Part shown: piece by piece, positions 7,309 to 29,640 of the stretch
Layout: the number at the start of each line of letters is the position of its first letter
Position numbering within the stretch: the stretch's first letter is position 1
From: an uncultured Myxococcia bacterium
Lineage (GTDB): Bacteria > CAZTWC01
Direction: 5' to 3'
NCBI GenBank assembly: GCA_964617105.1
Contig: CAZTWC010000002.1
Location: forward strand, 13,138-57,349
DNA: 44,212 bases
Program-made: the position numbers and the translations under genes
Notes under the pieces: generated by a model
The model's input: only the letters and a program-made list of their open reading frames with translations
The model's database searches: none
Told to the model about the DNA's origin: nothing

Positions 7309-7310
7309 AA

Positions 7311-10020: not shown

Positions 10021-10035
10021 AATGAAACCCAAGAG

Positions 10036-10221: not shown

Positions 10222-10297
10222 ATACGACTTTCCAAAAAGAATAGATCGAATTAATTATATCTCCAAACCTTAACAAAAGGGGATAAAGGAGGCTGAA

Positions 10298-11003: not shown

Positions 11004-11034
11004 AGAAAAATATAGGATATATAGGATATAATGT

Positions 11035-12723: not shown

Positions 12724-12763
12724 AAACTTCAAAAATCTTTCAAAACATAAAGAGGAATGAAAA

Positions 12764-13507
12764 ATGGAAGAAGAAGCGATTTACAAGGGAAAAAAATTAG
12801 ATGAGATCCTGGATACTATTGCCGAAGAAAAGGGAATTGCCCGAAAGGATATCACTTATGAGGTAATTGAGACCAAAAAAGGCTTAATACCTATGTTTGA
12901 CAAAATTTTGGTAAAATATATAGAACCAGATTCTATTGAATCAACCGAGAATGAAGATAATAAAATGGATGTTAGTGATGATGTGCAGGAAAAGTCAACT
13001 CCGGAAGAAGAAAAGAATCAATATAAAACTAACCTCAATAGAATAAAGACCGATGATCAGGCTGGAGAAGTAGAGAAAATCTTCAATGATATCAAGGAAC
13101 TTATGGATATTGACATCCAGGCGGAATTTAAAGAGTTAGATAGAAAAATCAGTGTGTATTGCCAGGGAAAAGATTTAGATATATTTTTTGGCAAGGGAAA
13201 GAGGAATATTAAGAGTATCCAATATATTATTGGAAAAATATTCAGTAGAAAAGTAGAACAAACCAAAAAAATAGTTTTTGAAAGGTTACATAATGAAACT
13301 GAATTGATGGATAAAGAGATGGAAGATATGGCCATTAGATTGGCTGAAAAAAGTAAAAATATTAAAAAATCTATTACCATAAATGCTCTTACCGCCAGGG
13401 AAAGAAAAATTATCCACATGAAATTAAAAGATATGGAAGGGATAAATACCAACAGTCAGGGAGATGGATTGTATAGAAGTTTGATGCTAATACCAGAAGA
13501 ACAGTAA
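12764..13507 (+). CDS. jag: Jag/EloR/KhpB RNA-binding protein
   Basis: Jag_N-like start, KH-like middle, ERKIIH R3H motif and SQGDGLYR end; lies between yidC and mnmE. Confidence 0.85.
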   Translation: MEEEAIYKGKKLDEILDTIAEEKGIARKDITYEVIETKKGLIPMFDKILVKYIEPDSIESTENEDNKMDVSDDVQEKSTPEEEKNQYKTNLNRIKTDDQAGEVEKIFNDIKELMDIDIQAEFKELDRKISVYCQGKDLDIFFGKGKRNIKSIQYIIGKIFSRKVEQTKKIVFERLHNETELMDKEMEDMAIRLAEKSKNIKKSITINALTARERKIIHMKLKDMEGINTNSQGDGLYRSLMLIPEEQ

Positions 13508-13680
13508 ACAGCAACCAGTAATTCTTTCCCTACCCTTCTAAAGCAATTATTGATGTAACCATCACAAAAAGACAGTTATACAACCATTTGACTTTTTATA
13601 AGTTTATCAAATATTAGTTGTAACCTATAATCCAATCTATTGACCGAATAATCTCGTTAAAACCAGTTTATGGAAAAGAT

Positions 13681-15009
13681 ATGTATGTAAACGATACAAT
13701 TGCCGCTATTGCCACGGGCAACGAAAATTGTGCCATATCTATTATTAGAATCAGTGGAGATAGAGCTATCCAGATTATAGAGCCTCTGGTTAGAAAAAAA
13801 TTAAAAAAGTATCAAGTCAACTACTGTGTATTAAAACATGGAGGCCGGAAATTAGATGAGGCCATTGTATTATATATGCCGGCGCCAAATTCCTATTCTG
13901 GTGAAGATGTTGTTGAGATTCACTGTCACGGCGGAAGGGAGAATACCAGAGATATCCTTGAAAAAATAGTTAACCAGGGTGCCCGTCTGGCTAAAAAAGG
14001 TGAATTTACCAGACGGGCATATTTAAATAACAAGATAACCCTTAATAAAGCGGAACTGATTAACAAACTTATCCACGTACAGGGTACCCTGCAACTTGAG
14101 GGTATTCGTAAATCTTTAGACCAGGGATTGAATAAACTATTTGATCAAGAAGAAGAGGAACTTGAAAAACTTATAGTTGAGGCAGAATATCAGATAGAAT
14201 TTAGTGAAGATGATGAAAATACGATAAATACCAATAAGATAGAATCGTTATTTAAAAAAACAAAAGAGGTATTAGTTAACAACGAAAATGAGCAATACAG
14301 TATTAAAAGGATAGTGATTATCGGGGAGCCCAATGTGGGAAAATCAACCATATTTAATGGATTATTGGGATTTGAAAGATCTATAGTAGATTTGGAGCCG
14401 GGCACTACCAGAGATATTGTTTCTGAAAAAATATCCAAAAATACACTGATCGTAGACACCGCAGGAATTAGAGAAACCAGTAATCGAGTTGAGAAAAAAG
14501 GGATCGAAAAAGTTAAAGAATTGTTAGATCAGGGAGATTTGATTATTTGGGTTTTTGAAAAGGGGAATTCCCAAAACTTAGATCAACTAAAAAAAATTAA
14601 ACAGAGTTTAAAAAACAAAAAAACAATTGCAGTTATAAATAAAAATGATTTAAAAAAAAATAGTTGTTTAGAGTTGGAGGATCTTTTTACAAAAAAGATT
14701 TTTATGTCGGCACTCTCTGAAAAAGATTTACAAAAATTAAAACAAAGAATTTTATTCGAAATTCAAAAGCAGACCAACTATTTTGCCATTAGCAGTTATC
14801 AAAAAATAATTATAATCGATTTGATAAAAAAAATAGAACAGTTTAAAAAGAGTTTTGATCAAGATATCCCGATAGTATATCTGGTTGAAGAGTTAAAAGA
14901 GATTAAAAATCAATTAAGACAATTAACCGGTAAAGAGGAACTATCCTCCAAGTATATGAGTGAAAACAGAATAGGTAAACTATTTGATAGTTATTGTGTG
15001 GGTAAATGA
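13681..15009 (+). CDS. mnmE: tRNA modification GTPase MnmE
   Basis: DTIAAIAT, SYSGEDVVEIHCHGG, GEFTRRA, GEPNVGKS, PGTTRD, DTAGIR, terminal CVGK. Confidence 0.95.
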   Translation: MYVNDTIAAIATGNENCAISIIRISGDRAIQIIEPLVRKKLKKYQVNYCVLKHGGRKLDEAIVLYMPAPNSYSGEDVVEIHCHGGRENTRDILEKIVNQGARLAKKGEFTRRAYLNNKITLNKAELINKLIHVQGTLQLEGIRKSLDQGLNKLFDQEEEELEKLIVEAEYQIEFSEDDENTINTNKIESLFKKTKEVLVNNENEQYSIKRIVIIGEPNVGKSTIFNGLLGFERSIVDLEPGTTRDIVSEKISKNTLIVDTAGIRETSNRVEKKGIEKVKELLDQGDLIIWVFEKGNSQNLDQLKKIKQSLKNKKTIAVINKNDLKKNSCLELEDLFTKKIFMSALSEKDLQKLKQRILFEIQKQTNYFAISSYQKIIIIDLIKKIEQFKKSFDQDIPIVYLVEELKEIKNQLRQLTGKEELSSKYMSENRIGKLFDSYCVGK

Positions 15010-16889
15010 ATTGTTTAGATTTTGATGTAATAGTAATCGGCGGTGGTCATGCCGGCTGCGAAGCAGCATATGCCTCTTCAAAATTAGGCAAGAGAACCGG
15101 CTTATTGACAATCTCTATCGATTTTATTGCCAAAATGTCATGTAATCCAGCCATTGGCGGTATAGCAAAAAGTCACATTGTCAAGGAGATTGACGCTTTA
15201 GGTGGTTTAATGGCCAAGATAACAGACCACTGTGGAATTCACTACCGAAAACTAAATACCAAAAAAGGACGGGCGGTTCAGGCCACCAGAGTTCAAACTG
15301 ATAAGCAGATGTACTCCAGAATAATGAAAAATTATTTGGAAACCTGCGAAAATTTATTTTTAAAAGAAGAGATAGCCGAAAAAATCAAGAAAAAGCGACA
15401 AGTATTTGAAATAACAACAAATGTTGGCAATACGTATGCCGCCAAAACCGTAATTGTTACTACTGGAACCTTTCTAAATGGGACCATTTATATTGGATTG
15501 AATAAATTTTCAGGCGGACGGTTAGGTGAAATGGCTTCAGAAAAATTGGCCCAATGCATAAAAGAATTTTCTCTAGATACAGGCCGGTTGAAGACCGGCA
15601 CGCCTCCGAGGATAAATAAAAAAACTATTGATTTTAGCAGAATGGATATTCAGCCGGGAGATGAACAGATAAAATCGTTATCTTTTTATGGGGAGTCAAA
15701 TTCCTTACCCCAGGTAAACTGTTATATATCTTACACTAATGAACAGACTAAAAAAATAATACTGGGAAACATGGATAAATCACCTTTGTATCAAGGAATG
15801 ATTAAAGGTATTGGCCCAAGATATTGCCCCTCAATAGAGGACAAAATTGTTCGTTTCAAAGACAAAAATCGTCACCAGATATTTGTGGAACCAGAGGGGT
15901 TAGAAAATAATGAGATCTACTTAAACGGCCTTTCAACCAGTCTTCCGTACCAGGTACAGTATGATATTATCAGGACAGTAAAAGGTCTTGAAAATGCAGA
16001 GATAATCAGACCAGGATATGCTATTGAATACGATTTTGTAAAACCCTATCAGTTAACCCATGGGTTAATGGTTAAAAAAATTCCAGGCCTCTTTTTAGCC
16101 GGCCAAATAAATGGTACCAGCGGATATGAAGAGGCAGGTTGCCAGGGTCTTATAGCCGGAATTAATGCAAGTCTATATATTGATAAAAAAAACCCTTTTA
16201 CCATCTCCAGAAGAGAGGGATATACTGGGGTTCTTATTGATGATCTGGTTACTAAAAGTACTGATGAACCTTATCGAATGTTTACTTCCAGGGCTGAATA
16301 TCGATTGTTGTTAAGAGAAAACAACGCTGATTTACGCTTAAGTGAAAAAGGTTATAATATAGGTTTGCTTGGTAGAAAAAGTTATAAAAGGATGAAAGAA
16401 AAACAACAGTTTATCTCTGAAACAATTGATATTATTAAAAAAACGAGAATATCACCTAATCAGGAAACCAACCAGATTATAGAAAAAATGGGTACCACTC
16501 CAATAAAAAAAAGTTATACTTTGGAAGAAATATTGAAAAGACCAGAAATAAAAATATCTTCCCTGGTTGAACAGTTTGATATTGTAAAACTAGTTAACAG
16601 CCAGTATTATAACTATTTGGAAGAGGTTGAAGAAGAGATTAAATACCAGGGATATATATTAAAAAAAGAGAGAGAAGATAGACAGAGAAAAAAATATAAC
16701 CAGGCAAAAATTCCAGAAGAGATTGACTATGACAGTATTAAAACCTTGAGCAATGAGGTAAAAGAGAAGATTAAACTTATCAAACCAACCACTATTTCTG
16801 AGTTATCCAATATAAGCGGGGTGACTCCATCGGCGGTCGATTATATAATAATTCATTTAAAAAATGACCAAACTTATAAAAATAATTGA
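15006..16889 (+). CDS. mnmG: tRNA uridine 5-carboxymethylaminomethyl modification enzyme MnmG (GidA)
   Basis: GGGHAGCEAA, MSCNPAIGG, RLKTGTPPR, GPRYCPSIEDK, AGQINGTSGYEEA, EPYRMFTSRAEYRL. Confidence 0.98.
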   Translation: MNCLDFDVIVIGGGHAGCEAAYASSKLGKRTGLLTISIDFIAKMSCNPAIGGIAKSHIVKEIDALGGLMAKITDHCGIHYRKLNTKKGRAVQATRVQTDKQMYSRIMKNYLETCENLFLKEEIAEKIKKKRQVFEITTNVGNTYAAKTVIVTTGTFLNGTIYIGLNKFSGGRLGEMASEKLAQCIKEFSLDTGRLKTGTPPRINKKTIDFSRMDIQPGDEQIKSLSFYGESNSLPQVNCYISYTNEQTKKIILGNMDKSPLYQGMIKGIGPRYCPSIEDKIVRFKDKNRHQIFVEPEGLENNEIYLNGLSTSLPYQVQYDIIRTVKGLENAEIIRPGYAIEYDFVKPYQLTHGLMVKKIPGLFLAGQINGTSGYEEAGCQGLIAGINASLYIDKKNPFTISRREGYTGVLIDDLVTKSTDEPYRMFTSRAEYRLLLRENNADLRLSEKGYNIGLLGRKSYKRMKEKQQFISETIDIIKKTRISPNQETNQIIEKMGTTPIKKSYTLEEILKRPEIKISSLVEQFDIVKLVNSQYYNYLEEVEEEIKYQGYILKKEREDRQRKKYNQAKIPEEIDYDSIKTLSNEVKEKIKLIKPTTISELSNISGVTPSAVDYIIIHLKNDQTYKNN

Positions 16890-17472
16890 ACAAATTTGTC
16901 AAGAGCAAAAAATATTCTTTGACAAATACGCAGTAGATCAATTTATCGAATATAAAAATCAATTAAAAAAGTGGAATAAAATCCACAATATAATCAGATT
17001 AGCCAATGATGAGCAGTTGATTAGTAGAGATTTTTGTGATTCAATAATATTGAAAAAGATAATTAACAAAGGAGAGAAAGTTGCGGATATTGGCAGCGGC
17101 GCTGGAATACCAGGTTTAATATTAGCCATATTTGAAAGAGATATAGAGGTGGATTTAATTGAGAGTAAAAGAAAGAAGAGTAACTTTCTAAAAGAGGTCA
17201 AAAGAGTTCTTAATTTAGATAACGTAAAAATAATAGATCAATACTTGAACAAAAACAGCAAATTAGATGATTATGACACGGTTATTTCCCGAGCGGCTAT
17301 GAAGTTTGATAAATATTTAGACGTTGCCAAGAAATTAATTAAATCAGATGGAAAAATAATTTATTATTCCAATGATTTAAACCCAATGAACCGTAAGGGG
17401 GCCGAAAAGATTATTTCCTATCAAAATAGATTTATAATAGTATACAAACCAAAAACAAATAATCGTTGTTGA
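16864..17472 (+). CDS. rsmG: 16S rRNA m7G527 methyltransferase (GidB)
   Basis: KWNKIHNI, DIGSGAGIPG, ESKRKK, SRA; follows mnmG. Confidence 0.93.
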   Translation: MTKLIKIIEQICQEQKIFFDKYAVDQFIEYKNQLKKWNKIHNIIRLANDEQLISRDFCDSIILKKIINKGEKVADIGSGAGIPGLILAIFERDIEVDLIESKRKKSNFLKEVKRVLNLDNVKIIDQYLNKNSKLDDYDTVISRAAMKFDKYLDVAKKLIKSDGKIIYYSNDLNPMNRKGAEKIISYQNRFIIVYKPKTNNRC

Positions 17473-17496
17473 CAATAGTTTAAAAACCAGGATAAT
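17469..17496 (+). promoter_or_regulatory. Candidate sigma70 promoter for parAB
   Basis: TTGACA (17469-17474, overlapping the rsmG stop), 16-nt spacer, GATAAT (17491-17496). Confidence 0.45.
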
Positions 17497-17515
17497 TGAT
17501 GTCAATATTATTAAT

Positions 17516-17531
17516 TGTTTCACGTGAAACA
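17516..17531. promoter_or_regulatory. parS centromere-like site
   Basis: Perfect 16-bp palindrome TGTTTCACGTGAAACA, the canonical chromosomal parS, 2 nt before the parA ATG. Confidence 0.95.
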
Positions 17532-17533
17532 TT

Positions 17534-18310
17534 ATGGCAAAAATAATAAGCATTGCAAATCAAAAAGGGGGAGTCGGAAAAACGACTACCGCCTTAAATT
17601 TATCAGCATCCTTAGCGGTGGCTGAAAAAAAAGTGTTACTGGTTGACCTTGATCCTCAGGGTAACTCCAGTAGTGGATTAGGGATAAATAACAAAGATCT
17701 ATCGGGTAGCATCTACGAATCAATAATAGGAAATAGAAAAATTCAAGATGTGATAGTAAAAACAGAAATACCCTATCTTGAAATTGTCCCATCGAATAAC
17801 CATCTAGCTGGTGCTGAAATTGAACTTGTAGGCCAATATTCACGAGAGTATAAACTTAAAAAGATTTTGGCTGCTATTTCGTCTAATTATGATTTTATAA
17901 TGATCGACTGTCCTCCATCATTAGGGTTATTAACCATTAATGGTCTTGCTGCTGCCAATTCTATTATTATTCCATTGCAATGTGAATTTTATGCTCTAGA
18001 GGGACTAAGCAACTTATTTAACACTATTGAATTGGTTAAAGAAAACCTCAATAATAAACTATATGTTGAGGGAATATTATTAACCATGTTGGACAAAAGA
18101 AATAATATTTGTAAACAGGTGGCAAAAGAAGTAAATGAATTTTTTGCTCAACAAGTAAACGTGTTTAAGACAGTAATTCCCAGGAATGTTAAACTGAGTG
18201 AAAGTCCAAGTTTTGGTAAACCAATAATTTTATATGACGTTAATTCTATAGGTTGTAAATGTTATTTGGAATTTGCCAAAGAGTTACTTGAAAAACTGGG
18301 TGAGGTTTAA
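17534..18310 (+). CDS. parA: Chromosome partitioning ATPase ParA/Soj
   Basis: [49 protein letters not shown]. Confidence 0.97.
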
Positions 18311-18313
18311 GAT

Positions 18314-19237
18314 ATGAAAAAAAAAGTATTAGGAAAAGGGTTGGGAGCATTGTTTCCAGAAAAAAAAGAGATTTCTCTTAATGATGAAGATTTCAAAGAT
18401 GAAAATCTTAAAGAAGTAAATATTGAAGATATTGAGATAAATATATCCCAACCAAGGAAACTATTTGATCCGCAAAAACTAGAGGAATTGAAAAATTCTA
18501 TTGAAAATTATGGAGTACTACAACCAATAATTGTCAGGTATAATCCGGAGAGTGAAAAATACCTTATTATTGCTGGAGAACGGCGATATAGAGCTGCCAA
18601 ACTTTGCGGGTACCAAACCATTCCGGCGTTGGTTAAGAAGGATGAGGAAAAAAGGGATTACCAAATATCCCTGATAGAAAACATTCAGAGAGAAGATCTC
18701 AATCCTATTGAGAAGGCCAAAGCCTACGAAAAATTAATTCAAATAAACGAATATTCCCAAGAAGAAGTTTCTCTTCAATTGGGAATAAATAGAAGTACTA
18801 TTGCAAACAGTATAAGGTTGTTAAAATTACCAGACAAGATTAAAACCTATATTTGTGAAGGTAAAATAACTTCGGGACATGCCAGGGCAATTCTGGCTGT
18901 GGTAGAAGAAGATGGTCAAATAAAACTGGCCGACAAAATAATATCTGAAGAACTTAGTGTAAGACAAGCAGAAAAGTTATCAGGTGAAAATAATAAAAAG
19001 AGAAATAAAAAGAGCACCAAAAACGATAGGTTGCTAATGGTAAAAAAAGAGCATATTACTCAGATGTGCAGACTGCTTGAGAAAAAGTTTGACACTAAAG
19101 TAAAAATCAAAATAAAAGAAAACAAAAAAGGGACTAAGGGAAAAATTGAAATTGAATATTATTCTCCAGACGATTTTGGTAGAATTGTTACCAGGATTGT
19201 ACCAGAAATTGAATTTAGAAAAAATATCGGGGATTAA
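18314..19237 (+). CDS. parB: Chromosome partitioning protein ParB/Spo0J
   Basis: LGKGLGAL, QPRK, IAGERRYRA, ENIQREDLNPIE, RSTIAN, GHARA. Confidence 0.97.
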   Translation: MKKKVLGKGLGALFPEKKEISLNDEDFKDENLKEVNIEDIEINISQPRKLFDPQKLEELKNSIENYGVLQPIIVRYNPESEKYLIIAGERRYRAAKLCGYQTIPALVKKDEEKRDYQISLIENIQREDLNPIEKAKAYEKLIQINEYSQEEVSLQLGINRSTIANSIRLLKLPDKIKTYICEGKITSGHARAILAVVEEDGQIKLADKIISEELSVRQAEKLSGENNKKRNKKSTKNDRLLMVKKEHITQMCRLLEKKFDTKVKIKIKENKKGTKGKIEIEYYSPDDFGRIVTRIVPEIEFRKNIGD

Positions 19238-19326
19238 TCGAAGGCGTTTAATGCCTGGAGTAATGTGATAGCGTATATTTTTTAGCCAGATGGCTGAACT
19301 TATTGATTGATTGTTGGTGAAAAAAG

Positions 19327-19722
19327 ATGCGTAAAAGAGATGATGAAATGGTTTTGGATAATTCGGACGAGATTAATGCTTTGCTTGGCAAAGGGTGCGA
19401 ATTTCAAGGAAAACTTACTTTTAAAGGTACTGTAAGAGTTGAGGGAAAATTTAAAGGGGAGATAAAAACAAAAAGTAACCTGGTAGTGGGAGAAAATGCC
19501 CAGATAGATGGTGATTTAAATGTTGGTAGTATATTAATATTCGGAAACGTCACGGGGAATATCAGAGCTAATGATTATATTGTTATAAATCCAGGAGCCA
19601 GTGTGGAAGCTAACATTATTACCAAATCATTGGAGATAAAAAAAGGCGCAATTTTTGAAGGAAACTGTATGATGAACGATATAGTTGATTTCGACACACA
19701 AGCGAGACTGGATGAAATATAA
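19327..19722 (+). CDS. Bactofilin (polymer-forming cytoskeletal protein, BacM/CcmA-like)
   Basis: LGKGCEFQGKLTFKGTVRVEGKFKGEI and GAIFEGNCMM beta-helix repeats. Position after parB matches bacM of myxobacteria. Confidence 0.92.
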   Translation: MRKRDDEMVLDNSDEINALLGKGCEFQGKLTFKGTVRVEGKFKGEIKTKSNLVVGENAQIDGDLNVGSILIFGNVTGNIRANDYIVINPGASVEANIITKSLEIKKGAIFEGNCMMNDIVDFDTQARLDEI

Positions 19723-19733
19723 AGGGGTAAAAG

Positions 19734-20759
19734 ATGACCAATAAAAAAGATAAAAGTATTGAAAATCGAGAAAAAAAATTAGAGATCACAGTTGCTAATA
19801 TTGAAAGATCTTTTGGTAAAGGCGCGATAATGAGATTGGGAAAAAATGGCACAGATGCCATAAAAGTGCCTGTAATATCAACAGGATCGGTTGGATTGGA
19901 TCTCGCCCTGGGGGTTGGAGGAATTCCTAAAGGAAGGATTATAGAGATATTTGGACCGGAGTCATCGGGAAAAACTACCTTGAGTCTACATTTAATTGCC
20001 GAGGTTAACAAGGCGGGAGGAGTAGCCGCATTTATAGATGCTGAACATGCCCTTGACGCTGGATATGCCAAAAATATAGGTGTAAATGTTAATGATTTGC
20101 TGGTTTCACAACCCGATTACGGTGAGCAAGCCCTTGAAATTGCAGATACTTTAGTAAAATCAGGAGCGATAGATATAATAGTTGTTGATTCAGTAGCAGC
20201 CTTGACTCCCAGGGCTGAATTGGATGGTGACATGGGAGATTCTCACATGGGATTGCAAGCCAGATTAATGAGTCAAGCGATGAGAAAATTAACCGGCTCA
20301 ACCTATAAATCGCAAACTACAGTGGTTTTTATTAATCAAATTAGGATGAAAATTGGAGTAATGTTCGGCAGTCCAGAAACTACAACAGGTGGAAATGCGT
20401 TGAAATTTTATTCTTCTGTGCGGATGGATATCAGGCGAATCGGACAGTTAAAAATTGGTGATAATAAAGTGGGCAACAGAACCAAAGTTAAAGTAGTTAA
20501 AAATAAACTGGCGCCTCCTTTTAGGGAGGTTGAATTTGATATCATCTATGGTCAAGGAATATCAAAAGAGGGTGAATTGCTGGACATGGGAGTTCATTAC
20601 GGAATTATAGATAAAACCGGTTCATGGTTTGGTTACAAAAATCAGAGGTTAGGGCAGGGTAGAGAGAATTGCCGTGAATTTCTAAGAACTAACAAAGATT
20701 TGGCCGAAGAGATAACCCAAGCAATCTTTCAGCATCTTTCAGCCCCCAAGACGAGTTAA
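19734..20759 (+). CDS. recA: Recombinase A
   Basis: [56 protein letters not shown]. Confidence 0.99.
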
Positions 20760-20765
20760 TGAATG

Positions 20766-21197
20766 TTAACACTCGTGGGTATCTCCCTGAAAATTTAAAA
20801 GTTTAGATTTTTTCTGGTTGACATTACAAACATTTTTCCATTGGCAGAGGCCACAAATATTTTTCGTAACATCTCTTTGAGAAAGTTTTTGTTTTAAAAT
20901 TAAAAAAATTTGGCTGGCAGGAAATTTATTTCCTGCGGCAATATTAATTAAAGACAACACCTGGTGATCCATTTGCAAAACATTTTTTTCAGATGAGTTA
21001 TCCCTAAGGCAAATGTTATTTTGGAGATGAGGACAAAAAGCGCATATATCGTCACAGCCAACTTTAATGGTTATCTGTATATCTGGATTATTGAGTATAG
21101 CGTTAAAAATAGACAGTAAATTGTCAACAAAGGGCTGGCTGTATCCATAGCCTTGAAAGCCAAGTAAACATAAAAGATGATGAGGACGAAGGTTCAT
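20766..21197 (-). CDS. DUF1284 family Cys/His-rich putative metal- or Fe-S-binding protein
   Basis: LRPHHLLC..FQGYGYS..F, DDICxxCP and CxxCxWxxxC pattern. ATG at 21197 avoids overlap with the upstream gene. Confidence 0.85.
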   Translation of the reverse strand: MNLRPHHLLCLLGFQGYGYSQPFVDNLLSIFNAILNNPDIQITIKVGCDDICAFCPHLQNNICLRDNSSEKNVLQMDHQVLSLINIAAGNKFPASQIFLILKQKLSQRDVTKNICGLCQWKNVCNVNQKKSKLLNFQGDTHEC

Positions 21198-21204
21198 AAG
21201 AATT

Positions 21205-21999
21205 TTATTCTGATAACTCCAGGTTATCAACTTCAAATTCTATGTTGGTGGGATCTATTTTAAACAGCCAGCCCTTATTTTGGGGGCTTTCCAATAGTAA
21301 ATTGATATCTTGCAATATCTCTTCATTATTCTTAATAATTCTACCGCTTAATGGGCATCCAATGGAGTGAATATGACCATCGGCGGCAGAAACTTTGGCG
21401 CATATTTCTCCCTGTTTGATATCATCCTTTACAGTAGGGAGTTCAATATTCACTATTTTGCCGACCTGGTTAATAAAATTGGGATCAGCACCAATTATTA
21501 CGCAGCCATCAGCACATATTTTGGCCCAAGAATGATTGGGCATTTTAAATAATTTTCCCGGTTCAATTCTTTTATCATCACCTGGGCTAAACATATCCGA
21601 CTCCCGGGCATAATCGGCAGGCTCTCTGAAGGCTCTGATCACTACGCTGCGCAATTCTTCTTTGGTGAAGGGTTTGGCAATAAAATCATAGGCACCCTTG
21701 CGAAGGGCCTTCATGGCGGTCGCCATGGTAGCGTAACCAGTTATCATTATGACTTTGATACTGCTTTTTTTCTCCTTAATCACTGATAACAGGTCGAGAC
21801 CATTCATGCCAGGCATCATAATATCGGAGATAACCAGATGGTAGTTATTGTTATCCAGTAGTTTTATGGCTTCATCGGCTGAAGAAGCGGCGTCGACAAG
21901 ATAATCATCCTTTTTAAAAATTCTCTTGATACTGGCTAAGACCACTGGTTCATCGTCTACCAGCAAAATATTATTAGTTTTGTCCATTTTGATCTCCAT
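21205..21999 (-). CDS. Response regulator: receiver domain fused to a glycine cleavage H-protein-like domain
   Basis: Receiver: LLVDDE, ISDIMMPG, ITG, KPF. C-domain: HSWAK..IIG..IELP..QGE..PLSGRI..N..LL.SP..GWLFKI matches the GcvH fold. Confidence 0.88.
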   Translation of the reverse strand: MEIKMDKTNNILLVDDEPVVLASIKRIFKKDDYLVDAASSADEAIKLLDNNNYHLVISDIMMPGMNGLDLLSVIKEKKSSIKVIMITGYATMATAMKALRKGAYDFIAKPFTKEELRSVVIRAFREPADYARESDMFSPGDDKRIEPGKLFKMPNHSWAKICADGCVIIGADPNFINQVGKIVNIELPTVKDDIKQGEICAKVSAADGHIHSIGCPLSGRIIKNNEEILQDINLLLESPQNKGWLFKIDPTNIEFEVDNLELSE

Positions 22000-23558
22000 T
22001 AAAAGTTGTTTATAGGCAAAATGAAGTTAGTTTTGGTTCTGCGTACTGTATCGGGGATGGGTAAAAAAATTTTAAAAATAGCCCCTTGTCCAGGGATTGA
22101 TTCAACCTCCATCTGCCCATCGTGCTGCTCCACAATTCCCCAACTTACCGCCAGGCCCAATCCGCTATTATTTTTCCCGCCTTTGGTAGAATAAAAGGGT
22201 TCAAATATATGCTCAAGATGTTCCGGTGGGATACCAGAACCAGAATCTCCAATAGATATCAATACCTTGTATTCATTCCAAAGGGTTTTGGTGGTAATAG
22301 TAATTACGCCGCCTTCAGGCATAGCCTCAGAGGCGTTGAGAAATAAGTTTAGAAACACCTGCTGTAATTGTCCCGGATCTGCATAGACGCCCGGCATATT
22401 GGCATCGTAATTTTGATTCAGTTTTATATTGAGGAATGAGGCTTGCTTTTTAATCAGTTGTTGGACCATTTCCAGCACTCTATTAACTTGGACCTCTTCA
22501 AAATGGGGTTTTTCTTGACGGGAAAAGTCGAGCAGGGTGCGGACAATATTGCGGCAGCGTAAAGTTTCTCTTACAATCAACTGGTAATCGTCCCGCTTTG
22601 GGTCATGATCATCGGCCTCTTCCAATAGATCTTCGCCAAAGGTCAAAATGCCGGTTAAAGGGTTGTTGAGTTCATGGGCAACATTGGCGGCCAATTTGCC
22701 GGTAGAAGCCAATTTTTCCGAAATTATTAATTGCTTTCCGGTGTCCTTTAGTTTGTCCTGCATTTGGTTAAAGGCTTTGGCTACTTTGCCAATTTCACCG
22801 GCGCCCGGTTTGATCACCGCATTCAGGTTACCATCAGTAATTAAATTAATACCCCGGAGCAACTCTTTTATTGGTACCCCCACCAGCCGGTTGGTCAAAA
22901 AATAGGAGAGGATGAAAGAGATTAAAGCCAACAGGGTAATAGTTAAGATCATCATATATTGCCATTTGGCGATTTTAATATCCAGGGACTGGTAGGAGAT
23001 TTGGATGTTCATAACTCCTAATACGGATTGATTTTTATTATGGACATGGCAGGAAGCGGTGTAGCAACTGGGCTGGTTATAAATGGGCAAAATGGCGAAT
23101 AACTGATGTTCTGAATCAGCAAATTTAATCACCGCTTTTTTAGGCATGGGTTTTAATAGTTTGTTCTGGTCCTGATGGCAGATGCTGCACTTAATGTCCT
23201 TGAGATAGGGGGAGTTGGCAGCGGGGTTATTAGCAGCGGGAATTTTTGTGGTGGAATGGTTGAAATAAGTGAGTTTTTGAATCTCTTTTTTAGTTAATAG
23301 TGATAGGAGAGAGGAGCGAATATTTTTACCCTCTCCGTGAAGCATATTGGAGTTGATCAATTGAGCGATGATCCAGGTAAGGCGCTGGGTGTTGCGCATA
23401 ACTTCTTCCATGGCCACCTGGCGATGGGTAATCAAGTTGATGGCAGTAAAAATACTCATGGGCACAATTAAAAAGATTGCCACAGTAATCCCTACTCTAA
23501 AGGCGATGGATGACTGCTTTAATTTGCGTATAAAGTTTTGCTTCATGCTCAAAACCAA
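21999..23558 (-). CDS. Membrane sensor histidine kinase (HAMP, NtrB-like) with Cys/His heme-c-type motifs in the periplasmic domain
   Basis: Two TM segments flank CSICH and CYTASCH; HAMP domain; AHELNNPL, NLFLNA, DSGSGI, FEPFYSTK, GLGL. Start may be ATG 23546. Confidence 0.93.
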   Translation of the reverse strand: MVLSMKQNFIRKLKQSSIAFRVGITVAIFLIVPMSIFTAINLITHRQVAMEEVMRNTQRLTWIIAQLINSNMLHGEGKNIRSSLLSLLTKKEIQKLTYFNHSTTKIPAANNPAANSPYLKDIKCSICHQDQNKLLKPMPKKAVIKFADSEHQLFAILPIYNQPSCYTASCHVHNKNQSVLGVMNIQISYQSLDIKIAKWQYMMILTITLLALISFILSYFLTNRLVGVPIKELLRGINLITDGNLNAVIKPGAGEIGKVAKAFNQMQDKLKDTGKQLIISEKLASTGKLAANVAHELNNPLTGILTFGEDLLEEADDHDPKRDDYQLIVRETLRCRNIVRTLLDFSRQEKPHFEEVQVNRVLEMVQQLIKKQASFLNIKLNQNYDANMPGVYADPGQLQQVFLNLFLNASEAMPEGGVITITTKTLWNEYKVLISIGDSGSGIPPEHLEHIFEPFYSTKGGKNNSGLGLAVSWGIVEQHDGQMEVESIPGQGAIFKIFLPIPDTVRRTKTNFILPINNF

Positions 23559-23561
23559 TAT

Positions 23562-24536
23562 CTATTTCGGCAAATCAGCCAGGGCAAGTTTATAGTCGGC
23601 GATTAAATCATCCATCTGTTCGTAAAACAGGGTGGTGTTTACATTGAAATGCAAGAGGATATGGCTAAGGGTATGAGGAATATAGGGGAAGAGTTTTTTT
23701 AAATTGATAATCCGGTAATTGTAAAAGGCTGAAGCATCTTCATTGGTAAGGCTGTTGATGATTTTATCAGAAAATTCACCTGATTTTTTAACGCCGTGAA
23801 AAGTTTTCAACCCTTTGCCGGTGCAAAAACTCAATACATTACCCAGGCTCCAGATATCAAAATCGCTATAGTGTTGGGTTAAGTCAAAGTCGATCCAGCG
23901 GTAAAGACCGGTTTTCGCCTCAATCAGGATATGGTCGTTGCGGATATCACCATGACACAGCCCCTGGTTATGGAGTTCTTTGATAGCCTCAAGGCAGGTG
24001 AGCAGTTTTTTAAAAATTTTTGGAAATACTGTATGAAAGTACTCTTCATGGTCCATTTTCAGGTCAAATATATGGTGGTAAAGGGAAAGACCCTTTATAA
24101 AATCGATGATTCTAACCGGATTGTCCTTTGGATCATATAGAGTGTACCCTTGCATGAAGCGCTGGTCGCCATCGATATTGTCTAGTACAGCGCTCTCTTT
24201 TTGGGGGTCACGGTAACAGCGGATTCTCAGCGGTCCTATTCTGGCGATAAATTCTTCATTAAAGACCAGTTTAATAATTTTGGTTTGGCCGTTTTTCAAG
24301 TCAATACATTTTTTTACCCAATATTTGGGTTCATCCAGTCCAAAACGGGCTTCCCGCAGATCACCCAGAACAAAAAAATCTTGGTCTTCTAGTCTCAACA
24401 CCTGCCCGTGGTAAATGTCCATAAACTCAGTGGTATCTTGAACCACTTCAATCGGACCTCTAATAATTTTCTCGGTCCAGGTTTCGATTTTTTCCTTTAA
24501 TAGAGGAGAGTTGTCTTTTATTGGTATTGCACGCAT
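23562..24536 (-). CDS. Atypical Ser/Thr protein kinase-like protein
   Basis: KIIK (beta3 Lys), ESAVL (helix C Glu), CHGDIRNDHI catalytic loop, WIDFD, DIWSLG. Confidence 0.8.
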   Translation of the reverse strand: MRAIPIKDNSPLLKEKIETWTEKIIRGPIEVVQDTTEFMDIYHGQVLRLEDQDFFVLGDLREARFGLDEPKYWVKKCIDLKNGQTKIIKLVFNEEFIARIGPLRIRCYRDPQKESAVLDNIDGDQRFMQGYTLYDPKDNPVRIIDFIKGLSLYHHIFDLKMDHEEYFHTVFPKIFKKLLTCLEAIKELHNQGLCHGDIRNDHILIEAKTGLYRWIDFDLTQHYSDFDIWSLGNVLSFCTGKGLKTFHGVKKSGEFSDKIINSLTNEDASAFYNYRIINLKKLFPYIPHTLSHILLHFNVNTTLFYEQMDDLIADYKLALADLPK

Positions 24537-24744
24537 ATATTTTATACTACCTCTTTTACCCTAATTTAATCAAGCTATAGATTTAAGAACGAAAAGAATA
24601 TTCGGGATTTCAATGCCGGGTTGATATAGTGTTGATCCGGGAATTAACTTGGCCAGATAAAGCTTGCTGGCTCCCCTAATTTACTATACTTTAATATAAG
24701 ATGCCTTGAAAAAATTATCCATCTTCTAAACAGGGAGGAAAATT

Positions 24745-25671
24745 ATGCCGGAAGATGTTAGAGAAGTGGTTATCATAGGTTCCGGGCCGGGTGGACATAC
24801 TGCCGCCATTTATTTGGCCAGAGGACAATTGAGTCCATTGGTTATAACCGGAGGACAGCCTGGCGGGCAGTTAACCACTACCTCAGAGGTAGAGAATTAT
24901 CCAGGTTTTCCAGAGGGTATAAATGGGATGGACCTGGTGGATAAGATGCAAAAACAGGCTAAAAAATTTGGCGCTGAATATATCTTGGATGAGGTAAAGC
25001 AAGTGGATTTAGGGCAAACTCCTTTCAAAGTGACTTGCGGAAGAGAGATAAAAACTAAAGCACTGATTGTATGCACTGGGTCTTCGCCTAACAAGTTGGG
25101 ATTGACTTCAGAGGAGAAGTTGTGGGGCCGGGGAGTTTCAGCCTGCGCTACCTGTGATGGCTTTTTTTACCGGGAAAAAGTGGTGGCAGTAGTTGGAGGT
25201 GGTGATGTGGCCATTGAAGAGGCCATGTTTTTAACCCAATTTGCCACCAAAGTTTATTTGATTCACCGCCGGGATGAGTTTAGGGCATCCCGGATTATGC
25301 AGGAAAAATTGCAGGAAAACACCAAGGTAGAGCCGGTTCTAAGCTTTGTTGTAGAGGATATTCTTGATCCTGACCAGGGTGAAGTTAAGGGATTATTAGT
25401 CAAAAACCTGAAAACCCAGGAGACTTCTAACCTTGATGTGGATGGGCTATTTGTGGCCATTGGCCATCGGCCTAATACCGGTTTTTTTCAAGGTCAATTG
25501 GAATTGGATAAAAAAGGGTATATTGTCACCAAACCAGGGGGATTTACCAACATTCCCGGGGTATTTGCTGCCGGTGATGTCCAGGATCCGGTTTATCAGC
25601 AGGCTATTACCGCAGCTGGCTCCGGTTGCCAGGCGGCATTGAATTGCGAGAAATATCTATTGAATTATTAG
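24745..25671 (+). CDS. trxB: Thioredoxin-disulfide reductase
   Basis: IIGSGPGG, GGQL, ENYPGF, GVSACATCDG, GGGD, HRRD, FAAGDV; RBS GGAGG. Confidence 0.97.
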   Translation: MPEDVREVVIIGSGPGGHTAAIYLARGQLSPLVITGGQPGGQLTTTSEVENYPGFPEGINGMDLVDKMQKQAKKFGAEYILDEVKQVDLGQTPFKVTCGREIKTKALIVCTGSSPNKLGLTSEEKLWGRGVSACATCDGFFYREKVVAVVGGGDVAIEEAMFLTQFATKVYLIHRRDEFRASRIMQEKLQENTKVEPVLSFVVEDILDPDQGEVKGLLVKNLKTQETSNLDVDGLFVAIGHRPNTGFFQGQLELDKKGYIVTKPGGFTNIPGVFAAGDVQDPVYQQAITAAGSGCQAALNCEKYLLNY

Positions 25672-25707
25672 TGACTCTGGATGTGCGTTCTTGGATGAAA
25701 AGTAGAG

Positions 25708-25821
25708 AGTTGCCGTTCGAAAATACGCTTCGTCGCGAAAATTTGGCTGCGTTTCACCTGCAACGCAGCTGGTGGAGATGCAGCCGGATTTGCAGCAGAA
25801 GGGGGTTTTCGGACGGCAACT
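25708..25821 (+). repeat. 114-nt long imperfect palindrome (MITE/REP-like element or structured RNA)
   Basis: Outer arms AGTTGCCGTTCGAAAA / TTTTCGGACGGCAACT (15/16). Inner arms ATTTGGCTGCGTTTC (25741-25755) / GAGATGCAGCCGGAT (25775-25789). Confidence 0.7.
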
Positions 25822-25862
25822 AGATAGTTTAGTTTAATTTTAATAATAATCAGGAGGTTGTT

Positions 25863-26084
25863 ATGACTTCATCGTTGAGTGAAATCCAAAAAAAATGTCC
25901 CACTAAGCAGGGCAACATGACCAGGTGTAACTGCACTTACGAGCCTTGTCCCCGCAAAGGACTTTGCTGCGAATGTATGGCCTATCATTTAGGCGCCAAT
26001 GAACTGCCCGCTTGCTGTTTTCCCGATAATGTAGAGAGGACTTATGACCGTTCTTTCCGGCGTTTTGCCAAAATTTACAAGTAA
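25863..26084 (+). CDS. Small Cys-rich protein (DUF6485-like)
   Basis: [36 protein letters not shown] pattern; strong RBS AGGAGG. Confidence 0.85.
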
Positions 26085-26117
26085 AATTTGGCCATAAAAT
26101 AATAATAAGGTAATTAT

Positions 26118-27470
26118 ATGGATATTTTGATAAAAAATGCCAAACTTATCTGCACTATGGATGATAACCGCACCAAATTGGAAGGCGGAGATATTCGTAT
26201 TCATGGAAATAGCATTGTTGCGGTTGGGACTCTAGAAGCAAAGGACAACGAACAAGTTATCGATGCCTCCCACCATTTGGTACTGCCTGGGTTTGTCAAT
26301 ACCCACCACCATCTCTACCAAACCCTGACCAGGAACCTGCCAGCCTGTCAGGATGCTGAACTGTTTGACTGGATACGCACCTTGTACCCAATTTGGGCCA
26401 GGATAGATCAGGGAAGTGTTTATTTGAGCGGTTTGGCCGGCCTGTGCGAGTTGATGCTCACCGGATGCACTACCGCCTCAGACCACTTTTATCTTTTTCC
26501 TCGTTCAGCCACTTCTCATCTGTTTGATTACCTGGTAAAGGCGGGGCGTGATGCAGGCATACGTTTTCACCCCTGCCGCGGGAGCATGTCTCGAGGTCAA
26601 TCAAAGGGAGGTTTGCCGCCGGATCATGTGGTGCAGACCGAAGAGGAGATAATCGCCGACTGCCAGAGGGTAATCGAGCAGTATCATGATGCTTCACCTT
26701 TCTCTATGTGCCGGGTGGTTTTGGCGCCTTGTTCCCCGTTTTCGGTTTCTGAGGAGTTATTGGTTAAAACCAGAGATCTGGCAGAAAAGCACCATCTATC
26801 GCTTCACACCCACGTAGCTGAAACCATTGACGAGGAGAATTATTGCCTGGAAGTATATGGCCAGCGGCCTTTGGCCTATATGCACAGTGTTGGTTGGACC
26901 GGGGACAACTGCTGGTACGCTCACTGTGTTCACCTGAATGACCAGGAGATCGAACTGATGGCTGAAACCGGCACGGGAGTGGCTCATTGTCCGGTATCCA
27001 ATCTGCGGTTGGCTTCTGGGATAGCACCTATCCGCAAAATGATGGATGCAGGGGTAAAGGTAGGGCTGGCAGTAGATGGTTCAGCCTCCAACGACTCTTC
27101 TGATATCCTGGGAGAAGTCCGGCAGTGTACCTTGATTCACCGGATCAAATCCGGAGTAAAGTCCATGCCGGCCGAAGATGCTCTCTGGCTGGCCACCCGG
27201 GGAGGCGCAGCGGTTTTGGGACGTGATGATATCGGCAGCATAGAGGCGGGAAAGGCGGCCGATTTGGCCCTGTTTAATCTAAATCGGCTCGAATATGCCG
27301 GCGCCATGCACGATCCTTTGGCCGCCCTGGTTTTTTGTGGTTATTCCCACCAGGTTGATTACTTGTTTGTTGATGGCAATTTGCGGGTAAAAGGGGGTGA
27401 ACTGGTGGATATCGACAGTAATTGGTTGTTAGGAGAGATGAATAAAACGGCAGAGAGATTGGTAGGGTAG
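26118..27470 (+). CDS. 8-oxoguanine deaminase (amidohydrolase superfamily)
   Basis: NTHHHLYQTLTR, RGSMS, APCSPFSV, HTHVAET, HCPVSN, VDGSASND: motif set typical of the 8-oxoguanine deaminase subgroup. Confidence 0.85.
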   Translation: MDILIKNAKLICTMDDNRTKLEGGDIRIHGNSIVAVGTLEAKDNEQVIDASHHLVLPGFVNTHHHLYQTLTRNLPACQDAELFDWIRTLYPIWARIDQGSVYLSGLAGLCELMLTGCTTASDHFYLFPRSATSHLFDYLVKAGRDAGIRFHPCRGSMSRGQSKGGLPPDHVVQTEEEIIADCQRVIEQYHDASPFSMCRVVLAPCSPFSVSEELLVKTRDLAEKHHLSLHTHVAETIDEENYCLEVYGQRPLAYMHSVGWTGDNCWYAHCVHLNDQEIELMAETGTGVAHCPVSNLRLASGIAPIRKMMDAGVKVGLAVDGSASNDSSDILGEVRQCTLIHRIKSGVKSMPAEDALWLATRGGAAVLGRDDIGSIEAGKAADLALFNLNRLEYAGAMHDPLAALVFCGYSHQVDYLFVDGNLRVKGGELVDIDSNWLLGEMNKTAERLVG

Positions 27471-27518
27471 GGCTCGCACTATTTGCAGGATTAATTAATT
27501 TTTTAAAGGATTAACAAG

Positions 27519-28049
27519 ATGGAACTAAATCCATGGTTGCTGGAGAGGGGGATAAAATTCCAGCGTTTGCTGTCCGGTACTCTGCTGCTTATCGGTTTTA
27601 TTTTTCATTTTATCTATCTGACTGCGCTGGTGGCGGCTATATTGCTCATATCAGCGATTAAACCGGAATTTTCACCTTTCTTGCGTCTTTTTCGTGTGTT
27701 ATTTAATCCCGGGTTGACTAAGGAAATCTACCCGGGAGAAACCGGGGATAGTTCTGAAAATGGGATCAATATCGTTGGGAAGGGAGAGGGGACCGAAGAT
27801 TTTATCCAAACCAAAGAGAGAATTTGCCAGGATAAATACTGTGAGTCGGGTATGGTATGCTTTACCTGCACCCTGGGAGCGGTGTTGTTATCAGCGTCTC
27901 TTTTATTGTTTGCCCTGGGATATCAAAGTATATGTTGGGGGCTGGTGCTGGTGGTGGCGATTTTGTCTATTTTTGGAGGAGTCACCGATTTTTGCCTGGG
28001 CACCCTGGTTTATCTATGGATAAAAAATTTAAAAATGGTTAAAAGCTAA
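27519..28049 (+). CDS. DUF4395-like integral membrane protein
   Basis: Two TM hairpins, SPF motif after TM2, C-terminal FCLG motif. Confidence 0.65.
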   Translation: MELNPWLLERGIKFQRLLSGTLLLIGFIFHFIYLTALVAAILLISAIKPEFSPFLRLFRVLFNPGLTKEIYPGETGDSSENGINIVGKGEGTEDFIQTKERICQDKYCESGMVCFTCTLGAVLLSASLLLFALGYQSICWGLVLVVAILSIFGGVTDFCLGTLVYLWIKNLKMVKS

Positions 28050-28053
28050 ATTT

Positions 28054-29640
28054 ATGGCAACTATTAAGGGTAAAACAAATTTTACAAACCAAAATCAAAA
28101 TAACCTGCCGGTGAATTGTAACCTGGTAAAATATGCTAAATACCGCCCCTTTATCAGGTGCCAATTTTGCCAGTTGTCGTTTCTCCAATGCTATAGTTTT
28201 CAGGTAGTTTCTCTCTTACTGGCTTTGCTGGTTATTTTTGTGGCATTTATCGACCTGGAGGGCGTGGCAGGCAGGATTACCACGGTTTTGGTCATCGTGA
28301 TCAGCGCTATTATCGCCGGAATAACCAACCAGAGAACCAACCAGTTGGTGATGGCGGAACATAAGGTCCGGGAATATGCTAAACAGATATTCAGGCAAAA
28401 GGAGCAGGTGGAGGAGTTGGTCAATCAGCGGACTTTAGAGTTGCAGCAGGCCAATAACCAGTTAAAAGAGGAATTCAAAAACCGGCAGGCCATGGAGGAA
28501 GAGTTACTTAAGGTTAAAAAGTTAGAGTCCCTGGGAGTGATGGCCGGCGGCATTGCTCACGATTTTAACAATCTTCTTCAGGCGATGCTGGGCAATATCC
28601 AGTTTATCGAGTTGGCCATACCTATGCAGGATAAAGTCTTGCAAGATGCTCTCAATGATGCTAAAAGAGCGGTCAAGCGGGCCAGAGATATAACGTTTAA
28701 TCTAACCAGTCTGGTGGGCGGTGGTCTGATAAAAGGCCGGGTATTTTTGAGTGACCTGGTGCCGGATTGGATCGCGGAGAAATATCCTAATACTCAGGAG
28801 CAGTTTAAATATAATTTTCTTTCCAACCTATGGCCGGTGGAGGTAGATATAGAGCAATTTTGCCATGCTTTGAAAGATGTGGTGGACAATGCCTTGGAGG
28901 CTATGTCGGAAAAAGGGCAGGTAACGATTAAAGGGGAAAATATAGTTTTAAACCAGGTGGAGAGTAAAGTTTTGCAGCCGGGTAATTTTGTCCGGCTGAC
29001 AGTATTGGATCAAGGACCTGGTATCGATAAAAATATTGTACAATCCATATTTGATCCCTTTTTTACCACCAAAAATATGCGTAAGGGGTTAGGGCTGGCC
29101 ATGGGTTATGCGATATTGAGAAAGCATGGTGGAATAATTACGGTTGAGCCTGGAGAGGAGAGGGGATCGCAATTTCATTTTTTAGTACCCGCCTGTACGG
29201 CTTTACCGGAGGGTGAAGATAATTTGTCAAAACCCTCAGAGATTTCGGTCAAACCATCGGGTAAAATTCTATTGGTTGAAGATGATGATTTAGCAAGAGA
29301 GGCGGCGGAGAGGCTCATCGTGCAAGCGGGATTTTGGGTCGATTCTGTGCCGGATTATAACAAAGCAAAAGAGATACTGGAGAGGAAAAAAAATGATTAC
29401 GAAGAGTATAAAGTAGTTATTTTAGATTTATCTTTGCCAGGACCGAAGTCGGGCTGGTATCTGGTCGAGGAGATAAAAATTCTCTGCCCGAAGATGCAGT
29501 TCATTATCTGCAGCGGGCATATTGATGACGATTTAGCCGCTAATTATCGTGCTTACGGCTTTGCCGGAATAGTTCGTAAACCCTACCAGGCCGAGGATTT
29601 ACTATATTTGATTATACTGGCTATGCAAAAATGGGTCTGA
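28054..29640 (+). CDS. Hybrid sensor histidine kinase/response regulator (CckA-like)
   Basis: Two TMs, coiled coil, GGIAHDFNNLL, DQGPGI, FDPFFTTK, GLGL; C-terminal receiver (VEDD, ILDLSLP, KPY). Confidence 0.93.
   Translation: MATIKGKTNFTNQNQNNLPVNCNLVKYAKYRPFIRCQFCQLSFLQCYSFQVVSLLLALLVIFVAFIDLEGVAGRITTVLVIVISAIIAGITNQRTNQLVMAEHKVREYAKQIFRQKEQVEELVNQRTLELQQANNQLKEEFKNRQAMEEELLKVKKLESLGVMAGGIAHDFNNLLQAMLGNIQFIELAIPMQDKVLQDALNDAKRAVKRARDITFNLTSLVGGGLIKGRVFLSDLVPDWIAEKYPNTQEQFKYNFLSNLWPVEVDIEQFCHALKDVVDNALEAMSEKGQVTIKGENIVLNQVESKVLQPGNFVRLTVLDQGPGIDKNIVQSIFDPFFTTKNMRKGLGLAMGYAILRKHGGIITVEPGEERGSQFHFLVPACTALPEGEDNLSKPSEISVKPSGKILLVEDDDLAREAAERLIVQAGFWVDSVPDYNKAKEILERKKNDYEEYKVVILDLSLPGPKSGWYLVEEIKILCPKMQFIICSGHIDDDLAANYRAYGFAGIVRKPYQAEDLLYLIILAMQKWV

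Follow-up and report, generated by a model that had tools for sequence, protein, structure and literature searches.

A conserved gene trio encoding a Hanks-type kinase-like protein, a histidine kinase and a receiver-GcvH regulator in an uncultured Myxococcia bacterium: a putative signalling module

Introduction

Response regulators of the CheY type give their output by contact with other proteins and not by binding of DNA. Cross-talk between Ser/Thr kinases and two-component systems, in which a kinase of the Hanks fold and a His-Asp pair meet in one pathway, is known from PknB or StkP acting on WalR-type regulators. The serine phosphorylation of DegS is a further example according to the accessible part of PMC3033389. 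Features of both kinds of system are combined in the genes described here, which lie on the minus strand at positions 20766-24536 of a stretch of 44,212 nucleotides from an uncultured Myxococcia bacterium (contig CAZTWC010000002.1); this whole stretch is called the window in the following. In the order of their arrangement on that strand, the genes encode a protein-kinase-like protein (PK), a histidine kinase (HK), a response regulator (RR) consisting of a receiver and a GcvH-like domain, and a protein with the domain DUF1284. The first three appear to form a conserved signalling module, in which the regulator may control the kinase.

The PK differs from the kinases of the Hanks cross-talk systems in being a soluble protein of 324 amino acids (aa) without a sensor or PASTA domain, with almost no activation segment and with a His in place of the catalytic-loop Asn. 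Moreover, it is encoded beside its two-component pair across phyla, and the RR of that pair carries a GcvH-like instead of a DNA-binding domain. From CheY-type regulators the RR differs by a C-terminal domain of the H-protein fold, putatively dedicated to docking, and by the adjoining gene for a partner with kinase fold. With the H protein of glycine cleavage the RR domain shares the fold family (GCV_H); unlike the H protein and the lipoylated GcvH-like carriers (S. aureus GcvH-L and sHdr LbpA, as described in the accessible parts of the reports), it has an Asp for the lipoyl Lys and is fused to a receiver. The sensor of HK has a PAS-like periplasmic fold and a CxxCH motif in common with those of Geobacter GSU0935 and GSU0582 (structures 3b42 and 3b47; heme Cache family), but it resembles them only slightly (TM 0.33-0.43) and has Cx4CH as its second motif.

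No description of the receiver-GcvH regulator, of this kinase family or of their pairing was found in the literature outside subscription journals, and the reports on GcvH-like proteins found there concerned lipoylated carriers only; Galperin's censuses of response-regulator outputs may include the architecture. The individual folds and the cross-talk between Hanks kinases and two-component systems are already known; the PK-HK-RR module, as judged from sequences, appears to be undescribed. Response regulators without DNA-binding or enzymatic output are poorly understood, and the RR belongs to a large family of this kind. The PK likewise represents a large kinase family, for which there is no Pfam or NCBIfam model above cut-off. 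If RR gates PK, a dedicated docking domain would link the two main phosphorylation systems of bacteria in series, and a cofactor-carrier fold would have been reused for signalling.

Results and Discussion

Conservation of the Gene Trio

The set of species compared contained no further genome from the phylum of the window. A search of metagenomes with a PK profile yielded 80 loci, of which 48 were informative, and in 38 of these 48 the genes for HK and RR adjoined that for PK. Adjacency was scored by tblastn with the window proteins, the open reading frames (ORFs) of the related loci having been called crudely. Downstream and co-directional HK and receiver-GcvH genes were found at 22 loci with a PAS-type HK and at 8 loci with a heme-motif HK; at 8 further loci the pair was downstream and convergent. 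Ten loci contained neither HK nor RR in at least 2.8 kb of downstream sequence; these trio-less loci sit amid unrelated housekeeping genes. At four loci HK or RR was cut by the end of the contig, and 28 were too short for classification. When PKs of at least 90% identity were merged, the trio was present in 29 of 38 clusters.

A similar picture was obtained from the phylum of genome G001 (the genome which contains locus L003). The PK was detected in 19 of 121 sampled genomes, with one copy each, and 18 of these 19 had a full-length REC-GcvH regulator on the contig of PK at a distance of 1.2-2.9 kb; in the nineteenth (G075) RR was present and cut by the contig end. Among the 102 PK-negative genomes of this phylum, only one (G096) possessed an RR. 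For the RR searches, 21 first-look candidates were scored per genome in this phylum and 12 in the Desulfobacterota. Starting from the regulator, 79 genome loci were retrieved with an RR profile, 14 of them with a full-length receiver-GcvH protein; three of the 14 (L003, L008, L010) showed a PK homologue (49-53% identity), followed by a PAS-type HK and then by RR.

A tree of 101 PKs was constructed with FastTree (midpoint-rooted, without support values; identical sequences and unclassifiably short loci had been dropped). All 62 trio-linked PKs, including that of the window, were contained in one clade of 68. No recurrent fourth gene beyond PK, RR and HK emerged when 626 flanking ORFs from 83 loci were clustered. 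Two further recurrent ORF clusters were rejected, as they apparently represent ORFs antisense to PK and HK.

Since the arrangement PK-HK-RR is conserved in other phyla, it represents more than a chance arrangement. A functional link of the kinase-like protein, HK and receiver-GcvH regulator is thus supported by the adjacency in 38 of 48 loci and by the nearly perfect co-occurrence in one phylum. The first-pass annotation of the window, which was made from the letters of the sequence, had regarded all four genes as one system, for which co-occurrence of the homologues was to be checked; such co-occurrence was found for PK, HK and RR and was lacking for DUF1284. The core module, as deduced from the sequences, is PK, HK and RR, with PK and the GcvH-like regulator as constant partners and an interchangeable sensor part. 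Judging by the names of the sources, the module occurs mostly in uncultured lineages, i.e., Zixibacteria, Planctomycetota, Abyssubacteria, KSB1, Lindowbacteria and Myxococcota.

Arrangement of the Genes

Four tightly spaced ORFs on the minus strand were confirmed at 20766-24536 of the window, and the spacing from which an operon had been proposed (gaps of 3 nt, -1 nt and 7 nt) was reproduced from the sequence. The PK gene (23562-24536, 324 aa) ends 3 nt before the TTG start of the HK gene (21999-23558) or 15 nt before its first ATG (21999-23546). The HK stop codon overlaps one ATG of RR as TAATG (RR gene 21205-21999). A second ATG lies 12 nt, i.e., four codons, downstream, at 21987; it is preceded by GGAG at a distance of 7 nt and agrees with the start of a database copy of 260 aa (P0001), and therefore it is probably the true start, with a gap of 11 nt between HK and RR. 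Between the RR stop and the ATG of the DUF1284 gene (20766-21197, 143 aa) there are 7 nt.

Upstream of PK is an intergenic region of 208 nt (24537..24744), which separates it from a divergent thioredoxin-reductase-like gene. This region is likely to contain the promoter of the operon, as suggested by consensus matches only. Domain scores were compared with the curated cut-offs of Pfam, and NCBIfam was also scanned; none of the four proteins was named by NCBIfam above its cut-offs. The lack of a DNA-binding output domain, which had been remarked upon before, was borne out by the Pfam scan of the four proteins.

The Kinase-Like Protein

With the Pfam model Pkinase, PK scored 29.6 bits, which is below the cut-off of 31.7, and no NCBIfam model came near its cut-off. 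The family profile gave weak matches to protein kinases of the PDB (best E value 8.6e-07), and from this alignment the catalytic residues could be assigned: K89 corresponds to the beta-3 Lys, E114 to the alpha-C Glu, and H195-G-D197-I-R199-N-D-H202 to HxDxKxxN, with D197 at the position of the catalytic Asp. D216-F-D aligns with DFG (D216 being the Mg-binding Asp), and D227-x-W-S-x-G with subdomain IX. An invariant His, H202, sits where the catalytic-loop Asn is expected (HRDxKxxN, +5). Only 8 residues separate D218 from D227; the activation segment, the P+1 loop and APE are missing. The invariant residues of PK are K89, E114, H195-G-D197-I-R199-x-D201-H202, W214-I-D216-F-D218 and D227, and the corresponding set (K89, E114, HGDxRxDH, WIDFD, D227) is invariant in 62 PKs of the trio clade and in 33 of the other clade (95 sequences).

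The predicted structure of PK (pLDDT 91.1, pTM 0.86) has a bilobal protein-kinase fold. The solved structures closest to it in fold are S. aureus PknB (4eqm; Z 17.2, rmsd 3.4 over 224 aligned residues) and M. tuberculosis PknB (1mru; Z 17.1), followed by PknG and YabT, and all of the top 50 structural neighbours listed are protein kinases. Foldseek agreed with this result (probability 1.00 to PknB, PknG and BRAF). On these grounds PK has the fold of a Hanks-type kinase and looks like an active enzyme.

The family comprises 1428 proteins at E ≤ 0.001 among 2422 candidates; the best 120 homologues are 49-61% identical to PK of the window. For many of these, the length given for the longest contig equals that of a regulator homologue, as with P0128 and P0017 or P0133 and P0008. 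Three fused forms were encountered. P0240 carries a C-terminal receiver, which is 43% identical to the receiver of the window RR; P0241 consists of cNMP-binding and rhodanese domains with PK, and P0242 of a LysR substrate-binding domain with PK. The latter two, longer fusions were the only ones of this kind among 2096 candidates.

The Regulator

The RR matched the Pfam models Response_reg (114.4 bits) and GCV_H (54.1 bits, cut-off 22.2). The receiver domain extends over about 21640-21969 and contains D15, D16, D59, T87 and K109; D16, D59, T87 and K109 do not vary among 18 relatives. The family consists of 1210 proteins at E ≤ 0.001 among 1747 candidates, and both Response_reg and GCV_H were present in 95 of the best 120.

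The GcvH-like output domain (21235..21537; residues 155-255) is similar to GcvH of T. maritima (2ka7; E 4e-13). In this alignment, D207 of RR stands opposite the lipoyl lysine of 2ka7, which is the Lys of its ESVK motif. Across 44 regulators, this column holds Asp in 34 and Lys in none. The domain can therefore not be lipoylated and is unable to serve as a swinging-arm carrier. H211 is kept in 35 of the 44 regulators. In PK-linked regulators, the hairpin that corresponds to the site of the lipoyl lysine abounds in Ser and Thr, one or the other of which occurs at position 205 in 28, at position 210 in 23 and at position 212 in 27 of the 44. A comparison aimed at residues specific for PK-linked regulators gave three weak candidates only (positions 69, 96 and 217), none of them in an obvious patch.

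Several variants of the regulator were noted. In P0075 and P0077, the regulator is fused to a 4Fe-4S dicluster domain (440 aa). Tandem receiver-GcvH regulators occur behind a heme-motif HK in L009 (7001-8985) and L011 (4456-8981), and in L011 a gene for NrfD and one for a GCV_H protein of 272 aa are situated upstream. The suggested connection to respiratory clusters of the NrfD/4Fe-4S/cytochrome type was encountered at scattered PK-less loci only, such as L011 and L007, and was not upheld. Large HEAT/WD40 proteins are encoded directly downstream of RR in L002, L004 and L006, which are labelled as Aminicenantes (two) and Heimdallarchaeota (one). The model PF23198 ("PDE8A_N") was considered as a second output type of RR and rejected, being a match below cut-off over a second receiver domain.

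The Histidine Kinase and Its Sensor

The HK is composed of a transmembrane segment, a periplasmic sensor, a second transmembrane segment, HAMP (33.2 bits), HisKA (51.3 bits) and HATPase_c (86.3 bits), the latter two domains scoring above their Pfam cut-offs. The sensor is of the PAS-like/Cache type (22947..23450; residues 33-200, counted from the ATG start) and contains, between the two transmembrane segments, the heme-type motifs CSICH (23175-23189) and CYTASCH (23046-23066). The combination of CxxCH with Cx4CH about 40 residues later was present in 20 of 22 sensor homologues, several of which are near-duplicates; of the two exceptions, L074 is a frame called wrongly and L038 has CxxCY. C88, C91, C129, C134 and H135 are invariant in 18 aligned domains.

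Pfam gave only matches below cut-off for the sensors: that of the window scored 19.3 bits with Mcp40H-20_sensor, and among the 18 domains Mcp40H-20_sensor was matched by 11, sCache_3_2 by 5 and Tll0287-like by 3. The match to the Tll0287-like/DUF3365 model was weak, with an E value of 0.011 at best. The structural model of the sensor has a pLDDT of 73.7, with the motif loop below 50, and the best folds are the Geobacter c-heme sensors 3b42 (E 1.2e-4, TM 0.33/0.42) and 3b47 (E 1.6e-3). Some members of this Geobacter family have a second heme motif, according to the accessible part of PMC3831638, and heme-c Cache sensors bind NO, according to that of PMC12889525. The genome of the window contains three matches to Cytochrom_C_asm above cut-off.

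A c-type heme is thus probably carried by the HK sensor, and the earlier suggestion of a heme-reading periplasmic sensor gains from the conserved motifs, the nearest folds and the encoded cytochrome c assembly. The module is not defined by the heme sensor: most trios possess a PAS-type HK, and the sensor of HK is a swappable input. The heme-motif sensor is also paired with receiver-only regulators, without a GcvH-like domain, in Proteobacteria (L023, L026, L033 and others).

Coupling of Regulator and Kinase

The RR lacks an output and PK an input of its own, and both are co-encoded across different types of sensors and gene orientations; these facts together argue for a direct coupling. In the reading which we tentatively prefer, the three proteins would constitute one signalling node, in which phosphorylated RR docks on PK and gates it. 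The HK would read a periplasmic redox or small-ligand signal by its PAS-like/Cache sensor, probably with one or two c-type hemes, and would then autophosphorylate. The phosphoryl group would be transferred to D59 of RR, as the domains suggest; the two-component parts of HK and RR are intact in sequence. The de-lipoylated H-protein fold of RR might serve as the docking surface for PK, the product of the neighbouring gene, and binding of phosphorylated RR would gate PK, which would in turn phosphorylate its targets.

Three considerations favour this direction of control, from RR to PK. In each of the three fused forms, PK is joined to sensing or regulatory domains; one of these domains, the receiver of P0240, belongs to the subfamily of the window RR receiver; and PK is devoid of the loop that normally serves to switch Hanks kinases. 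With no activation segment, PK cannot be switched on by autophosphorylation of that loop. The reverse direction is a strong rival.

Prediction of the complex of PK with the whole RR, each with its own alignment, gave scores of 0.43, 0.62 and 0.56 (median 0.56), and three controls gave 0.01, 0.00 and 0.00. The runs shared at least 64% of contacts, the pLDDT of the partner was at least 79, and the result was graded as weak support by the tool. Of 157 solved complexes, 116 attained the mark for the complex score, as did 2 of 215 mismatched pairs; a score of at most 0.60 while passing the mark was obtained for 18 of the 157 solved complexes and for both passing mismatches. According to these models, a contact between RR and the kinase is plausible (score 0.56). 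The first-pass annotation had envisaged protein contact through the H-protein-like domain; the contact itself received weak support.

Several points weigh against gating of PK by RR, and they concern the prediction, the enzyme and the distribution of the genes. The PK-RR score falls in a band where, by the grading of the tool, wrong predictions outnumber right ones except for guesses with a high prior likelihood, and no interface was obtained by which the RR domain in contact with PK could be assigned. The activity of PK is not assured, because a His replaces the catalytic-loop Asn, and each of the fused forms is a single cluster. As to the distribution, six PKs of the trio clade have no HK or RR neighbours, and some RRs may have been missed with 12 to 21 candidates per genome. 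Eleven of the 14 full-length RR loci are without PK, their HKs being mostly of the sCache_3 type or, in L009 and L011, of the heme-motif type; the genomes of these two loci hold no PK anywhere. As such PK-less REC-GcvH regulators exist, the GcvH-like domain must have other targets there.

To the same side of the balance belong the Desulfobacterota (the phylum of genome G126), where PK was detected in 32 of 201 genomes. A full-length RR was found in three genomes of this phylum, and both PK and RR, side by side, in G134 only. The trio was present at one of 30 fetched PK loci, and at 18 of the other 29 a gene of the Usp family abuts PK. The Usp assignment was confirmed by Pfam for ten of ten tested PK-adjacent genes, and also for L157. 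In the tree described above, all 20 Usp-linked PKs fell into a second clade of 33, in which WS of the motif DxWSxG is replaced by FG. At the Usp-linked loci (among L184-L210, and L153 and L157), two-component genes are absent beside PK.

The distribution can be accommodated by the assumption that control runs in the reverse direction, an explanation which we consider doubtful on balance. The PK would then be a second input, which phosphorylates RR or HK on Ser or Thr, and the GcvH-like domain would act on a target common to all REC-GcvH regulators. This would account for the regulators without PK as well as for the pairing of PK with Usp in the other clade, since the kinase would have the product of the adjacent gene as its substrate in either case. 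The hairpin of RR at the site of the lipoyl lysine offers Ser/Thr residues for this (205, 210 and 212), Hanks kinases are known to phosphorylate two-component proteins on Ser/Thr (accessible parts of PMC6213207 and PMC12189002; for DegS, PMC3033389), and the complex score is equally compatible with this direction. However, the output of RR is left unexplained; the three fused forms place PK with sensing or regulatory domains, as would be expected for an effector; PK lacks an activation segment or a sensor domain of its own for receiving a signal; and no RR residue is clearly specific to the PK-linked set.

Gating of PK by RR could be formulated more strictly as a direct and so far undescribed type of relay from His-Asp phosphotransfer to a Ser/Thr kinase. 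The de-lipoylated H-protein fold would be a phosphorylation-dependent clamp, which switches on a Hanks kinase without activation loop; we regard this as possible, though rather doubtful in this form. With such a relay, the Usp proteins would be the equivalent partner of PK in the Desulfobacterota. In a bolder variant, PK would phosphorylate the Ser/Thr-rich hairpin, and the ancient site of cofactor attachment would be reused as a phospho-switch.

It appears improbable that PK is a catalytically dead scaffold or a kinase for small molecules, which merely shares the neighbourhood of HK and RR and is not coupled directly to them. The Pfam score under the cut-off, the His in place of the catalytic-loop Asn and the missing activation segment, as in small-molecule kinases, would fit such a protein. 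One homologue also bears the database name "aminoglycoside phosphotransferase family protein", and ten loci as well as one whole clade are without the HK-RR pair. On the other hand, the catalytic residues are invariant in the 95 sequences mentioned, and the top 50 structural neighbours are exclusively protein kinases. Mere neighbourhood would also be at variance with the adjacency, which is kept in co-directional and convergent layouts, and with the nearly perfect phyletic co-occurrence in one phylum.

The DUF1284 Gene

The fourth protein is a clear member of DUF1284 (PF06935; 86.6 bits, cut-off 25; 86.9 bits in the genome search), which occurs as a single copy in the genome of the window. By eye, nine Cys were counted in the translation, including a motif Cx3Cx2C. 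A sequence search of the PDB with this protein gave nothing below E 0.4, and no literature on DUF1284 was found outside subscription journals.

The gene was not found in the 79 genome loci, in the 80 metagenome loci or in the 121 genomes of the trio-bearing phylum; because of this absence, DUF1284 is to be considered a local neighbour and not a part of the conserved module. Among the sigma-70-like matches of the region, the best (10/12; a consensus match only) is located at 21230..21202, directly upstream of the DUF1284 start. Its membership in the system, as put forward in the first-pass annotation, was consequently given up. That all four genes form one system, in which a heme signal passes by HK and the H-protein-like domain to the kinase or to DUF1284, is very improbable: the short distance of 7 nt on the same strand and the Cys-rich protein, which could bind a metal or an Fe-S cluster, are in its favour, but DUF1284 occurs in 0 of 79 and 0 of 80 related loci and in 0 of the 121 genomes from the phylum with 19 trio carriers, and the promoter-like match lies just 5' of its gene.

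Genomic Surroundings

The stop codons of DUF1284 and recA are convergent and 6 nt apart (20759-20766 of the window); no terminator-like hairpin was found between them. The genome (G000) has a size of 4.07 Mb in 489 contigs and is 96.5% complete, and the region was listed for eight DNA runs, which belong to two studies of marine or seawater samples, and for no RNA run.

The part of the window from 6200 to 21000 resembles the region of a replication origin. The genes dnaN (7311-8444) and dnaA (8671-10032) are on the minus strand, followed on the plus strand by rnpA, yidC, jag, mnmE, mnmG, rsmG, parA, parB, a bactofilin gene and recA. The sign of the GC skew changes near 9 kb, the G+C content is 27-35% at 7 to 20 kb and 42-51% in the flanks, and the gap at 10033-10443 is a candidate for oriC. 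The recF gene is apparently split into an N-terminal ORF (6880-7308) and a C-terminal ORF (6218-6715), both of which match SMC_N; this could be due to a frameshift, a pseudogene or an assembly error.

An ORF for a protein of 794 aa (40751-43135) contains a PALP (cysteine-synthase-like) domain together with a complete cysteinyl-tRNA synthetase. Divergent from the operon, at 24745-29640, are genes for the thioredoxin-reductase-like protein, a small Cys-rich DUF6485 protein, an amidohydrolase, a DUF4395 membrane protein and a hybrid HK-receiver protein. An amidohydrolase is also encoded in L010, a few kb downstream of the trio, which is probably a coincidence.

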